From a virus (taxonomy: Duplodnaviria > Heunggongvirae > Uroviricota > Caudoviricetes): a stretch of DNA of 12,133 nucleotides. The position numbers and the translations under genes were made by a program. Shown in pieces: positions 1 to 12,133 of this stretch (the first letter of the stretch is position 1; each line of letters opens with the position of its first letter). The stretch is from IMG/VR virus record IMGVR_UViG_2703718828_000006; one strand, 5' to 3'. Under the pieces are notes generated by a model, which did not search any database, had not been told where the DNA came from, and saw only the letters and a list, made by a program, of their open reading frames with translations.

Positions 1-35
1 GTTGGCAGCATCACCGAGGTCTATTTACATACTTT

Positions 36-51
36 TGGTGCGAAGGCCGGA
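36..51. repeat. att-site direct repeat: partial copy of the tRNA-Leu 3' end, marking the distal boundary of the integrated element
   Basis: TGGTGCGAAGGCCGGA at 36..51 matches the plus-strand image of the tRNA 3' end at 11928..11944 (TGGTGCCGAAGGCCGGA) in 16 of 17 positions, with one missing C. Same orientation; spacing about 11.9 kb. Confidence 0.6.
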
Positions 52-248
52 ATAGAAAAACCAAATAACCATATGTATTAACTAATAATTAAAAACAACA
101 TTCTCTTTTATGCCCCTTTTTATGCCCCCACAGAAATTTCACTACTATCACTTTGTTTGATTAATAACCAGATTACATAAATATTTTGGTTTGTGTTCGC
201 TTTACGGATCCAAACCCGAACAGAACCTATCACCAGAACCGCTATTAA

Positions 249-268
249 TTGTATCGAATTTGACACAA
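249..268 (+). promoter_or_regulatory. Dyad TTGTATC-N6-GACACAA (contains TGT-N12-ACA); candidate Ogr/Delta-type late-promoter activator site for the portal-like gene
   Basis: TGT at 250..252 and ACA at 265..267 separated by 12 nt. Nearly identical to the dyad at 4478..4497. Dyad centre is about 104 nt upstream of the ATG at 363. Confidence 0.5.
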
Positions 269-362
269 TGCCCGCCTGCAGTAATCAAACAGTCAAGCAA
301 ATATCGTTGTGCTGTTCATTACACACCTGATCCCTCAAGAGTTGTTCACAGCGAGAAAGAAT

Positions 363-1388
363 ATGGATAATCAGGACAAAATTTCTGACCGTGAGGTTAC
401 TGCAACGGCAGAGCCGCAGTCCTCTGCAGAATGTTTCACCTTTGGCGATCCCATTCCAGTACTGGACCGGCGCGAACTGCTGGACTATGTGGAATGCGTG
501 CAAATGGATCGCTGGTATGAGCCGCCGGTGAGTTTTGCAGGGTTGGCACGTACCTACCGCGCAGCCGTACATCACAGTTCACCAATTGCCGTTAAGCGCG
601 ACATTCTCAGCAGTACCTATATCCCGCATCGCCTGCTCAGCCAGCAGTCTTTCACCCGTTTCGTTCAGGATTATCTGGTGTTTGGTAATGCCTATCTGGA
701 AAAGCGCACTAACCGGCTGGGTGGTGTCCTCTCACTGGAGCCAGCGCTGGCAAAGTATACCCGGCGCGGTGTTGACCTAGAATCCTACTGGTTTGTGAAC
801 TATAGCCTGACGACGCAGCCTTATGAGTTCACCAGAGGCAATATTTTTCACCTGATGGAGCCGGATATTAACCAGGAGATTTACGGGCTGCCCGGTTATC
901 TCTCTGCCATTCCGTCAACCTTGCTCAACGAGTCCGCAACGCTGTTCCGCCGGAAGTATTACATCAACGGTAGTCATGCGGGTTTCATCATGTACATGAC
1001 AGACGCGGCGCAGAATCAGGAGGACGTGAACAACATCCGCAAGGCAATGAAAAGTGCCAAAGGGCCGGGAAACTTTCGCAATCTTTTTATGTACTCGCCC
1101 AATGGTAAAAAGGACGGCATCCAGATCATCCCGCTGTCAGAGGTGGCGGCAAAAGATGAGTTTATGAATATCAAGAATGTGAGTCGTGATGACATGATGG
1201 CAGCGCACCGCGTGCCACCGCAGATGATGGGTATCATACCTAACAACACTGGTGGTTTTGGCGATGTGGAAAAAGCAAGTCGTGTGTTTGTTCGTAATGA
1301 ATTACTCCCCCTCCAAAAACGTTGCGAAGAGTTGAATGAATGGCTAAATGAAGAAGTAATAAAATTTAGGCCATACTTATTAGATTAA
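363..1388 (+). CDS. Phage portal-like protein (tentative; P2 GpQ / PBSX-type portal family), 341 aa
   Basis: Long ORF in GC-typical DNA. The track ORF starts at a GTG at 309; the first in-frame ATG is 363 (MDNQDKISDRE...) behind a purine-rich stretch. C-terminal region has HRVPPQMMGI, reminiscent of the conserved GVPP-type motif I recall in HK97/P2-family portals. Identification is from memory, not a search. Confidence 0.55.
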   Translation: MDNQDKISDREVTATAEPQSSAECFTFGDPIPVLDRRELLDYVECVQMDRWYEPPVSFAGLARTYRAAVHHSSPIAVKRDILSSTYIPHRLLSQQSFTRFVQDYLVFGNAYLEKRTNRLGGVLSLEPALAKYTRRGVDLESYWFVNYSLTTQPYEFTRGNIFHLMEPDINQEIYGLPGYLSAIPSTLLNESATLFRRKYYINGSHAGFIMYMTDAAQNQEDVNNIRKAMKSAKGPGNFRNLFMYSPNGKKDGIQIIPLSEVAAKDEFMNIKNVSRDDMMAAHRVPPQMMGIIPNNTGGFGDVEKASRVFVRNELLPLQKRCEELNEWLNEEVIKFRPYLLD

Positions 1389-1390
1389 AT

Positions 1391-1426
1391 GAAAGGGCCT
1401 TAAACGGCCCACATTTTATTTTTTGC
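1391..1426. terminator. Bidirectional rho-independent terminator between the convergent portal-like and cargo genes
   Basis: GGGCC-ttaaac-GGCCC hairpin (1395..1410) with a T-tract after it on the plus strand (acattttattttttg) and a T-rich tract on the minus strand (tttcattt). Lies between the stops at 1388 and 1416. Confidence 0.6.
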
Positions 1427-9763: not shown

Positions 9764-9831
9764 CCCTATAGCCCCTTAGAGCCTCTTGTAGCCCCTTCTA
9801 ATGAGAGATATCCAGAAAGTAATTAATAAAT

Positions 9832-10470
9832 TCACTCTCCGTATTTTATAATGTCTTTGCCCAACTTTATTTTCTTATAAAAAGTAGCTTTTTTAATTCC
9901 TTTCAATATAATCTCATTCTCATTACAAAAAGAAATAATATCATTATATATAACACTATTATCGCTATAATTTGCCTTTCCATGTTTCTTAAGTAATTCA
10001 ATTAGTAGGTAGATTAATTTACAACTATAATTATCCTCGTCATCTTTTCTATACTGCCCTCTGCCATTACTCCTTAATTTTTTACCAATTTCATATAATT
10101 CACTTCCTCCTAGCATCATTAAAATATCGCCCCAATCTTTATTTTTTACCTGTTGTTGCAATGCGTTCTCAATTCTTTCCTTAATCTCCACGGGTACAAT
10201 ATCTTCCCTCTGAAAGATATAAGCGGCAGTTAGTACTAAGTTCGCTTCCACTTTTTGCGTGGCGGATATGCTTTTATATTCATTAATCAGTTGTAGATTT
10301 CTGGTTATTGCCTTTCTTAATCTAATAACCTCTTTTAATTGAATCTCAGTCAATTCATCATTTTCGGTATCATAGTCAAAACCATTCATAGCAAGCGCCA
10401 TTTCGTGTGGCGTAATGTACGTTAACCTATTAAAATAAAACAAATCATTATCAGATTGTGTGTTATTCAT
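9832..10470 (-). CDS. Hypothetical 212-aa protein in an AT-rich cargo island immediately downstream of the integrase
   Basis: ATG at 10470 with a GGAGAGA ribosome-binding site, only 30 nt past the integrase stop. Base composition shifts abruptly to AT-rich at the integrase stop. Hydrophilic, Lys/Glu/Asn-rich, no hydrophobic segment, no recognisable motif. Confidence 0.75.
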   Translation of the reverse strand: MNNTQSDNDLFYFNRLTYITPHEMALAMNGFDYDTENDELTEIQLKEVIRLRKAITRNLQLINEYKSISATQKVEANLVLTAAYIFQREDIVPVEIKERIENALQQQVKNKDWGDILMMLGGSELYEIGKKLRSNGRGQYRKDDEDNYSCKLIYLLIELLKKHGKANYSDNSVIYNDIISFCNENEIILKGIKKATFYKKIKLGKDIIKYGE

Positions 10471-10500
10471 TTAAATCTCTCCGCAGCCCCACAATGGTAA

Positions 10501-11763
10501 TTATTTTCCATGCACACGCGCAAAATCATATGGTGTGATAGATCCATTCTTGTTAGCATCAATGTAATCAGCCCACCATTGCAGCATTAATCTTCTTTCT
10601 TCAAGATATTCAGAAGTGTGCATATATGAACCTTTCACGTTTTTTCGTTCAACGTGGCTTAACTGTCTTTCAATAGCGTCATCATTCCATAGTTTCGACT
10701 CACTTAGTGCACCCCGCGCCATAGTTCTAAATCCATGACCACATACTTCTGTTTTCGTATCATATCCCATTACACGTAAGGCACTATTTACTGTATTTTC
10801 ACTCATTACTTTTTTAGGATCATGATCGCTGGGAAATATAACCTCACCTTTACCACTCAAGGCATGTAAACGTTTAAAAATATCAAATGCTTGTTTGCTA
10901 AGCGGAACAATATGTTCAGTTTTCATCTTCATCCCACGCTCAGAGTGTTTTACGCCGGGAATAGGCTTACGAATTCCGGGTATCGTCCACTCACTTCGTT
11001 CAAAGTTAACCTCACTCCAGCGAGCAAAACGCATCTCACTTGAACGAATAAATGTGAGTAGCGTTAATTCAACGGCAAGCCGTGTCATTAGTCGCCCTTT
11101 ATAACGTGACAATCTTTCAAGGAACTCAGGGATTCTTTTTGGGGGTAGCGCTGGGTGATGGGTAGACTTAACACTTAAAAGCGCTCCAGCCATATCACTG
11201 GCAGGATTTGATTCAAGAAGGTCATTCTGCACACCAAAACGCATAATTGCGTTTACGCGCTGCATCAGTCGCTGCGCAACATCATGTTTACCTGCCGTAT
11301 CGACAGCTTTGATCGGATTGAGAAGCTGGCTGGTTCTCAACGTCCTAGCGTCAATTTGGCCTATCGAGGGGAAAATATACTGCTCAAGCGTCAGCAGAAC
11401 GCGACGACTATGATCTTCGCTCCAGGTTAGATTACTTGCGTGCCATTGCCTTGCGATAGTTTCAAATAAATATGCCCCCTCAATTTCAGCTTGTGCCCCC
11501 TTTTGCTCAGCTTTGGGGTCAATGCCCTGAGACAACAATTTCTTTGCTGCATCGCGCTTACCCCGAGCCTCAGCCAAAGTGATCGTCGGGTATACACCAA
11601 AAGCGAGCCGATCTTCCTTTTTGTCTGATGGGCGGCGATATTTCATGCGCCAGTACTTGGAACCTTTAGGGGAGACTTCAAGATACAAGCCGCCTCCATC
11701 AGCCATTTTATAGGCTTTCTCTTTCGGCTTTGCGGTCTCTATCTGGCGAGCATTGAGTTTCAT
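10501..11763 (-). CDS. int: P4-family tyrosine integrase (site-specific recombinase)
   Basis: N-terminal arm-binding region MKLNARQIETAKPKEKAYKMADGGGLYLEV...KYWRMKYR; C-terminal H-x-x-R (GHGFRTMARG) and a downstream Tyr-containing segment. Track ORF starts at a TTG at 11832; the ATG at 11763 fits the family N-terminus. Adjacent to the tRNA 3' end. Confidence 0.9.
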   Translation of the reverse strand: MKLNARQIETAKPKEKAYKMADGGGLYLEVSPKGSKYWRMKYRRPSDKKEDRLAFGVYPTITLAEARGKRDAAKKLLSQGIDPKAEQKGAQAEIEGAYLFETIARQWHASNLTWSEDHSRRVLLTLEQYIFPSIGQIDARTLRTSQLLNPIKAVDTAGKHDVAQRLMQRVNAIMRFGVQNDLLESNPASDMAGALLSVKSTHHPALPPKRIPEFLERLSRYKGRLMTRLAVELTLLTFIRSSEMRFARWSEVNFERSEWTIPGIRKPIPGVKHSERGMKMKTEHIVPLSKQAFDIFKRLHALSGKGEVIFPSDHDPKKVMSENTVNSALRVMGYDTKTEVCGHGFRTMARGALSESKLWNDDAIERQLSHVERKNVKGSYMHTSEYLEERRLMLQWWADYIDANKNGSITPYDFARVHGK

Positions 11764-11927
11764 TTTGGGGGCACAAATCCTGATCGAATTGACATGCCCC
11801 CGATTATGCCCCCAAAAGAGGGTAGACCACAAGAGACCAATGAAGACCGTGAAATACTGTAACTTGCTTGTTTTTAAGGGGTTTTTTTGGATTTGTAGAC
11901 TTCAGGAAACGTCAAAAGAAGTGTTAA

Positions 11928-11944
11928 TGGTGCCGAAGGCCGGA
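11928..11944. repeat. att core at the tRNA-Leu 3' end (partner of the repeat at 36..51)
   Basis: TGGTGCCGAAGGCCGGA on the plus strand is the complement of the tRNA 3' terminus. It is repeated, minus one C, at 36..51. Confidence 0.6.
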
Positions 11945-12012
11945 CTCGAACCGGCACGTATTTCTACGGTTGATTTTGAATCAACTGCGTCTACCGATTT
12001 CGCCACTTCGGC
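11928..12012 (-). tRNA. leuX: tRNA-Leu (anticodon CAA), leuX-like; integration target
   Basis: Minus-strand read: GCCGAAGTGGCGAAATCGGTAGACGCAGTTGATTCAAAATCAACCGTAGAAATACGTGCCGGTTCGAGTCCGGCCTTCGGCACCA. Acceptor stem GCCGAAG/CTTCGGC, anticodon loop TTCAAAA, T-loop GGTTCGAGTCC, 3' CCA; 85 nt with a long variable arm. Confidence 0.95.
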
Positions 12013-12133
12013 ACTGAAGAGGTATGCGGAAAACGTTGTGGATTATACCTGTCGCACGCCACCATGCAAGCGCCAGCTTGCTCGCACCTCGCTAAGTGCT
12101 GAAATTTTCAGCATTGCATACAGCGATGTGTAA

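Follow-up and report, generated by a model that had tools for sequence, protein, structure and literature searches.

According to earlier descriptions, P4-like satellites have hardly any genes in common with phages and obtain all of their structural proteins from a helper. The presence of a phage portal gene next to P4-like genes raises the question of what kind of element carries it and whether the gene is part of that element. We studied this in a stretch of 12,133 nucleotides from a virus of the Caudoviricetes (IMG/VR record IMGVR_UViG_2703718828_000006), hereafter the window, for which a preliminary description had proposed a complete P4-like satellite of about 11.9 kb with a gene order other than that of P4. 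We conclude, with a probability of roughly 0.8, that the window holds an intact P4-family phage satellite of 11,892 bp from attachment site (att) to attachment site, integrated in Escherichia coli leuX, bounded by its att repeats and of the type that has Sid, delta and cos. Taken as a whole, the element is of an already known kind, with a layout that many genomes have. The new feature is a conserved portal of helper type, which belongs to the satellite.

The att repeats delimit the element. The only tRNA found in the window (ARAGORN and Rfam) is a tRNA-Leu(CAA) on the minus strand (11928-12012), which we identify as leuX because ahr lies beyond the tRNA in E. coli relatives. Its 3' end forms the proximal att core (11928-11944; TGGTGCCGAAGGCCGGA on the plus strand). 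The distal att repeat (TGGTGCGAAGGCCGGA, 36-51), at the left end of the element, is a 16/17 copy of this 3' end and of the P4 att core; it stands in direct orientation at a spacing of 11,892 bp and is short of one C. Several comparisons identify 36-51 as a genuine boundary, and no chance match. The megablast and blastn matches to related E. coli elements open at base 36 or 37, homology to the relatives L107, L001, L002, L012 and L017 begins at the repeat, and similarity breaks there when the left junctions of seven elements are aligned. Moreover, L107, an IMG/VR provirus contig from another genome, is 99.55% identical across window positions 36-12104, where the match ends just beyond the tRNA; both of its flanks are unrelated. 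The repeat is thus present in other copies of the element, the left boundary lies where the preliminary description had placed it, and the direct repeat of 16/17 nt about 11.9 kb from the tRNA is confirmed, as is the integrase adjoining the tRNA.

This integrase is a tyrosine recombinase of P4 type (10501-11763, minus strand; Arm-DNA-bind_3, Phage_int_M and Phage_integrase domains), with 72% identity to P4 Int. Its arm-type repeats are laid out on both sides of the core as in the attP site of P4. On the P' arm (110-130, plus strand), tandem copies of ATGCCCC(T/C) are identical in sequence and spacing to the attP arm repeats of P4 (P4 4151-4174); the P arm (11767-11814) has an inverted copy (11767-11774) and a tandem ATGCCCCC pair (11794-11814). 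Together, the att repeats, the arm repeats and L107 bear out the proposal of a complete att-bounded satellite of P4 size and family at leuX.

Apart from the portal and a small YlcI-like gene, the genes are on the minus strand, and every gene is full length as in the relatives. Read from the tRNA, the order is int, a 212-aa gene, 10-bp repeats, alpA, the ylcI-like gene, an icd-like gene, two small genes, a DUF5375 gene and the primase; then come iterons, TGT-N12-ACA boxes, sid, delta, a terminator-like hairpin, cos, a 558-aa gene, the portal and att. The delta/ogr-like, AlpA-like and portal-like genes, the iterons and the cos-like site of the preliminary description are all present. One assignment had to be changed: the gene preceding delta had been called psu, and no sid had been recognised. 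By its sequence, this gene (3683-4444, minus strand) is a homologue of Sid, the external scaffold that determines capsid size. Its 253-aa product matches phrog_6165 over its full length at 8e-95 and phrog_6366 at 7e-10 only; among the P4 controls, Sid matches phrog_6165 (6e-116) and Psu matches phrog_6366 (1e-100). Its alignment with P4 Sid runs from end to end (25% identity over 246 residues, E 6e-14) and that with P4 Psu over only 110 C-terminal residues (E 2e-5); among the solved structures of the PDB, the Sid chain of 7jw1 matches best. Hence, the local sid-delta order is that of P4, and psu is the absent gene: tblastn with P4 Psu matches only the C-terminal part of sid in the window, and a separate psu was not found there. 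Sister elements that have a separate psu show the order sid-psu-delta or, in L017 and L018, sid-delta-psu. The earlier label arose from a confusion to which Sid and Psu are prone in annotation based on names: PHROGs calls both the Sid and the Psu family "Psu-like", and in sister elements PGAP names this protein "polarity suppression", "capsid morphogenesis" or "septation initiation".

The gene following sid, delta (3411-3683, minus strand), encodes an Ogr/Delta zinc-finger late activator of 90 aa (Pfam Ogr_Delta, 1e-16) with a single finger, which aligns to each half of P4 delta. Upstream of sid, two TGT-N12-ACA boxes on the minus strand (4479-4496 and 4517-4534) form, by motif and spacing, a predicted Psid-like late promoter; their centres lie 43.5 nt and, for the distal box, 81.5 nt before the sid ATG, and the Psid box of P4 is at 80.5 nt. 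The motif occurs six times in the window (2.8 expected); four of these matches are in the two short intergenic stretches that precede sid and the portal. The terminator-like hairpin after delta was read by eye; the automated scan did not list it. This simple scan for sigma-70 promoters and terminators was at chance level and served as a pointer only.

A cos region of P2/P4 type follows (3160-3340, minus strand). When the minus strand of 3090-3420 is aligned with the cos of P4, P2 and Yersinia phage MLG42, conserved blocks appear on both sides, and a variant of the cohesive end, GGCGGGCGGGGCTGTGCAC, is found at 3183-3201; a block that flanks cos in phages is also matched. A search of the window for the exact 19-mer of the P2/P4 cohesive end, allowing up to 3 mismatches, gave nothing because the site differs by an indel and several bases; the alignment revealed it. 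In sequence, the site is one that a helper terminase could use, and we predict its cleavage there. The variable hotspot extends over 1389-3182, and backbone homology with all relatives resumes at 3182-3188. The hotspot therefore starts at the edge of cos, as has been described for P4 (PMC9122126).

The portal gene (363-1388, plus strand) lies inside the att repeats and faces the hotspot. It encodes a full-length portal of P2 gpQ type (341 aa; phrog_68 at 6e-171, covering positions 8-338 of 344; TIGR01540 at 5e-101, with 338 bits against a cut-off of 166; Pfam Phage_portal). The protein is 86-92% identical to portals of Fels-2-like, Klebsiella and Yersinia P2-like phages, and the gene is 81-87% identical to phage portals in nucleotides over ~900 bp. 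The same satellite backbone is followed by the portal at argW-type tRNA-Arg(CCT) sites in E. coli, as well as in Pantoea, Pseudocitrobacter, and IMG/VR and metagenome contigs. No terminase or other P2 structural gene was found near it. The portal with its upstream region is rare, being present in ~13 complete E. coli genomes. In the searchable literature, we found no published description of a helper-type portal in a P4-like element.

The region upstream of the portal is specific to satellites. It includes two TGT-N12-ACA boxes on the plus strand (250-267 and 308-325), a putative late promoter activated by Ogr/delta, and its sequence is conserved from a few bases before the first box through the ATG in all portal-bearing satellites, whatever their att module. 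In phages, Q comes immediately after the terminase gene P and nothing corresponds to this region; a distant blastn search of 200-470 against phages gave matches only inside the portal open reading frame (ORF). We rejected the late promoter region between P and O of phages as its origin, for which there was no significant similarity.

The portal itself has been kept intact. All 13 satellite portals examined give full-length matches (six ORFs were translated, twelve cores are gapless and stop-free, and the others give tblastn matches of 340-341 of 341 residues). The nine satellite copies included in a neighbour-joining tree of 90 portals form a single clade (bootstrap 185/200), and we accordingly rejected repeated re-copying of satellite portals from helper phages. 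Over the core of the protein (residues 26-325), the median ratio of nonsynonymous to synonymous substitutions (dN/dS) is 0.036 among satellites, with a median dS of 0.43, against 0.027 among phages; the ratio was also computed on full-length pairs. Monophyly, constraint and intactness fit a single capture followed by long upkeep of a working protein in satellites. Satellite portals also share A59, S96, N146 and R158, which are absent from the sampled non-P2 phage portals, and their 24 N-terminal residues are distinct; both may mark an adaptation to the satellite.

Because the satellite portals are constrained and monophyletic and have a promoter-like region of their own, we lean towards a working structural protein that would provide, or take the place of, the helper portal where the satellite directs the procapsids. 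A more specific proposal, which we advance tentatively, is that a sub-lineage of satellites domesticated a helper portal as a late gene under Ogr/delta control that acts in hijacking. The protein might seed Sid-caged procapsids, ease a portal shortage that would arise because more, smaller capsids are made from the same pool of coat protein, or bias packaging to the disadvantage of the helper. If this is true, a side effect is that the satellite hotspot has gained both flanks of the helper's defence hotspot, cos and gpQ. A lineage of P4 type that keeps a portal under strong purifying selection, behind a late-promoter-like region, bears both on the scarcity of genes shared with phages and on the complete dependence on helper structural proteins. 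The portal would be the first structural gene known in the P4-like family and suggests a step between capsid thieves such as P4 and phage-inducible chromosomal islands that form capsids (cf-PICIs). It also puts ~1 kb of helper homology directly beside the defence hotspot.

A different explanation is that the portal is a passenger, captured once with the cos-proximal region of a P2-like helper and kept mainly as homology to the helper, with a dispensable protein. The genome of such helpers runs hotspot-cos-(cargo)-gpQ; because the satellite hotspot is flanked by cos and gpQ, cassettes could then move between helper and satellite by homologous recombination. In agreement with this, the window shares the order cos-cargo-portal with P2-like prophages that carry a homologue of the 558-aa cargo gene, homology between satellite copies stops inside the 3' end of the portal (1301-1360), beside the variable cargo, and the nucleotide identity to phage portals given above is high enough to count in its favour. 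According to a 2026 survey, defences are not exchanged between P2 and P4, which are without the homology to do so (PMC13586616), a lack that would make the passenger explanation interesting. We nevertheless consider it unlikely. Satellite portals are not interspersed with those of phages, they are as constrained as phage portals at a considerable synonymous divergence within their clade, and the conserved promoter-like region that precedes them is absent from phages. Furthermore, the phage and satellite homologues of the cargo are only 55-57% identical, which means that there was no recent exchange, and two other cargos of portal-bearing satellites (DUF4062 and a 120-aa protein) are without P2-like counterparts in the phage collection, so that their origin in P2-like hotspots found no support. 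Only one cargo family was found in both satellite and P2 hotspots, at this low identity.

The remaining alternatives concern the nature of the element. The least probable of all is that the portal derives from a decayed P2-like prophage or from a tandem island at leuX and is no part of the satellite. Tandem islands do occur at leuX in relatives, and window positions 1-35 resemble the region upstream of the integrase of the second island in E. coli ET734 (L002); hence, leuX probably has tandem islands here too, with the satellite beside the tRNA and ahead of an older island. However, the portal lies within the att repeats, P2 terminase and other structural genes do not accompany it, and the same portal and upstream region go with this backbone on short viral contigs, in other genera and at tRNA-Arg sites. 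The homology with L107 takes in all of 36-12104 and stops there. If the element were a defective island, fixed in place and past mobilisation, the absence of psu and epsilon and the 1-nt deletion in the left core would be accounted for, yet we regard this as quite improbable: all genes are full length, copies 99.5-100% identical occur in different flanks and genera, and the C deletion is common to other leuX copies. In addition, psu-less P4-like lineages are frequent, form sub-families and are considered likely functional (PMC10085698). Finally, the order int-alpA-icd-primase-ori-packaging is that of a Gram-negative PICI, the layout being collinear with int, AlpA, Icd-like, YlcI-like and primase-replicase genes, and P4-like elements score as incomplete PICIs in the literature (PMC10085698). 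We find such an assignment very improbable, because the hijack module, made up of Sid, an activator of Ogr/delta type and a cos of P2/P4 type, is specific to P4, integrase and att belong to the P4 type, and the int, alpA and primase-replicase are accompanied by no PICI capsid-morphogenesis, Rpp or TerS-type gene. The cf-PICIs are closer in one respect, as they encode their own portal and their early region also has int, alpA, icd, ylcI and primase. They encode a whole HK97-type head module, with capsid, protease, portal, connectors, TerS and TerL. In the element studied here, the portal is the only such gene and is of P2 type, an own capsid, protease, head-tail connectors or terminase were not found, and the element would rely on remodelling by Sid and on helper terminase acting at cos.

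Some points weigh against an intact P4-family satellite as we describe it. The left att copy is missing a core C, although other leuX copies show the same deletion. We found no homologue of epsilon/ash or psu and no immunity RNA of CI type. The portal alleles are ~10% apart in nucleotides while the satellite backbones are 99.3-99.5% identical. If the first portal box is at -55, the second would fall near +3, unlike the arrangement of P4 Psid, and promoter function is assigned from motif, position and conservation alone. The phages in the portal tree are the 80 best IMG/VR matches and a few others, and an unsampled phage lineage may nest in the satellite clade. Lastly, we infer excision, replication, packaging and the small-capsid steps from homology.

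An intact satellite of this kind would be excised by Int with AlpA and re-integrated at leuX, and the primase-DUF927 helicase would replicate it from the iterons. In the late programme of a P2-like helper, the helper's Ogr and the satellite's delta would switch on sid and the portal. The external cage made by Sid would then force the helper capsid protein into small capsids, and helper terminase would cut the satellite cos and pack the ~11.9-kb genome, whose size fits a head of P4 size. The hotspot gene would be accessory cargo, probably anti-phage. Psu decorates the capsid and inhibits Rho, and epsilon derepresses the helper; as both are absent, the element probably depends on helper induction or infection and does not cause it.

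The closest known systems are P4 itself (NC_001609) and the catalogued P4-like satellites (Moura de Sousa and Rocha 2021/2023; Rousset et al. 2022). The element has in common with P4 the leuX site, the integrase, the att core and the arm repeats; late genes for Sid and an Ogr/delta activator, preceded by TGT-N12-ACA boxes spaced much as in Psid; a cos of P2/P4 type, at which a variable hotspot starts; the Zn-ribbon/Toprim N-terminus of the primase, DUF5375 (orf106), an AlpA-like regulator and GGTG(A)AACA-type iterons after the primase; and the size of ~11.9 kb. It differs from P4 in having a gpQ-type portal and a single-finger delta, in being without psu and epsilon/ash, and in its replication module (see below). 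Among the seven core components by which SatelliteFinder recognises P4-like elements, it has the integrase, Sid, Delta and AlpA, with Psu and epsilon/Ash absent; the seventh, the alpha primase-helicase, is like that of P4 in its N-terminal part and not in its C-terminal one. Its genes do not follow the canonical order int-(hotspot, cos)-psu-delta-sid-alpA-epsilon-alpha. The variant P4-like satellites that lack psu (SatelliteFinder Type B#var06 and Type C; PMC10085698) keep Sid and Delta without Psu, as here; the order described for them is psu-delta-sid, alpA, epsilon, alpha, with no mention of a portal or of an alpha-to-sid arrangement. The left end of P2-like phages (the cos-gpQ region and the gpA-gpQ defence hotspot, Rousset et al. 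2022) resembles that of the element in having cos, accessory cargo and a portal that reads towards cos. Unlike in the satellite, which is without P and has a separate promoter-like region with Ogr boxes, P directly precedes Q there in one operon.

The module order of the element is int-alpA-icd-...-primase-iterons-sid-delta-cos-hotspot-portal. The sid-delta-cos-hotspot block thus lies downstream of the primase and iterons and in the same direction as the early operon. The P4 map, followed from int, has hotspot-cos-psu-delta-sid (read towards int), ori, orf88 ... alpha, crr and att, so that the block there lies between int and the alpA-like orf88 and is divergent. The difference noted in the preliminary description is therefore real at the level of modules, where the layout resembles that of PICIs, and does not extend to sid and delta, which keep their P4 order. 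Of 5,426 complete E. coli genomes, 326 (6%) have the alpha-to-sid junction (4300-5100) at a coverage of at least 80%, and the layout is hence neither rare nor exceptional. Elements with this backbone were found in Citrobacter, Enterobacter, Shigella, Pseudocitrobacter and Pantoea, inserted at tRNA-Thr(CGT), tRNA-Arg(CCT) and tRNA-Leu sites. Published surveys call the P4-like organisation very conserved and list other variants of its order; a common satellite lineage of E. coli departs from the canonical P4 map. Near-identical genes in Pseudocitrobacter, together with L107 in a different flank, point to recent spread.

Modules have evidently been shuffled between satellites. Comparison of window positions 36-1360 and 3188-8773 with L001, L009, L010 and L017 shows a strong mosaicism of these elements. 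In L017, the portal, cargo and early genes are 99.7-100% identical to those of the window, sid and delta are swapped (84.6% and 70.8%), and there is an extra psu-like gene. The integration module switches between the leuX and the argW type near position 8773.

The hotspot holds a single AT-rich gene of 558 aa (1416-3092, minus strand). Its product has no match in Pfam, PHROG or NCBIfam, and its PADLOC matches are weak; its family (~556-560 residues) is widespread in Proteobacteria and annotated as hypothetical, with no annotated domain. The AlphaFold model is a confident one, with a predicted local distance difference test (pLDDT) score of 82, and no solved structure is similar. In P2-like prophages, the homologues occupy the P2 defence hotspot, between DinI/cos and gpQ, and the order cos-cargo-portal is for this reason equal in helper and satellite; homologues are at 5490-7164 in L020 and at 5001-6674 in L101. 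In Enterobacter soli, a homologue with 82% identity sits in the hotspot of a satellite without portal. We regard the gene as a candidate for a single-gene accessory or defence function. It is one of two AT-rich genes proposed earlier as cargo. Both are present, and this one is indeed variable cargo; the other, encoding 212 aa, travels with the leuX-type integration module. This second gene (9832-10470, minus strand; phrog_30524 at 4.5e-113; 28-34% GC) sits beside int in every leuX relative examined, and argW-type modules have a different gene of 324 aa instead. By this distribution, it behaves as a part of the leuX-type integration module, and not as free cargo.

The replication module departs from that of P4 in both of its parts. 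The primase-helicase (890 aa; 4845-7517, minus strand; phrog_1139 "DNA primase" at 5e-185) has a Zn-ribbon and Toprim like P4 alpha, followed by DUF927. The N-terminal 320 residues are 37% identical to P4 alpha, while the DUF927 C-terminal part does not align with it and takes the place of the helicase and origin-binding part of P4 alpha. The alignments make the protein a hybrid, in which a P4-alpha-like N-terminus is joined to a DUF927 helicase part; the earlier designation as an alpha-type primase holds for the former and not for the latter. Downstream of the gene, at the position of P4 crr, an iteron cluster (4619-4811) has eight GGTGRAACA 9-mers (4622-4810), with a perfect 18-nt inverted pair. 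The window has nine such 9-mers in all (0.2 expected), the ninth being at 432-440. These iterons (GGTGAAACA/GGTGGAACA) are 9-mers, whereas the type-1 repeats of P4 are the 8-mer GGTGAACA. The hybrid primase and the 9-mer iterons are consistent with a changed origin-binding specificity. A 70-aa ORF overlapping the cluster (4597-4809, minus strand) has no family match and was rejected as a gene.

The early region beyond the primase is made of small genes, on the minus strand unless stated otherwise. The DUF5375 protein (7514-7897) is a homologue of P4 orf106 (43% identity). It is followed by two conserved genes at 7894-8178 (94 aa; phrog_14861) and 8210-8599 (~120-129 aa; phrog_30862), and by a gene for an Icd-like protein (8562-8738; phrog_1743 at 2.5e-16), so annotated in relatives and located at the position of the cI/kil region of P4. 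A YlcI/YnfO-family gene (8929-9114, plus strand; phrog_949), also annotated in relatives, is divergent from the early operon. We rejected as a gene a 245-aa ORF (8562-9299) that overlaps the Icd-like and YlcI-like genes and has no family match. No homologue of epsilon/ash was recognised: the small early proteins do not match Phage_ASH, and BLASTP to P4 epsilon gave no alignment; the element may carry a non-homologous analogue. The Rfam search of the window, which returned the tRNA only, gave no P4 CI/C4-type immunity RNA. The AlpA-family regulator or excisionase (9211-9486; Pfam Phage_AlpA at 2e-11; 25% identity to P4 orf88) has a likely start that gives 76 aa (9211-9441). Upstream of alpA, four tandem 10-bp repeats CAC(A/T)GTATTA (9722-9761) are the positional analogue of the type-2 repeats of the P4 ori. 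Candidates for an origin or for AlpA/Int binding, they lie in the AT-rich gap that separates alpA from the 212-aa gene and, within 9722-9800, are followed by TAGCCCCTT-like repeats.

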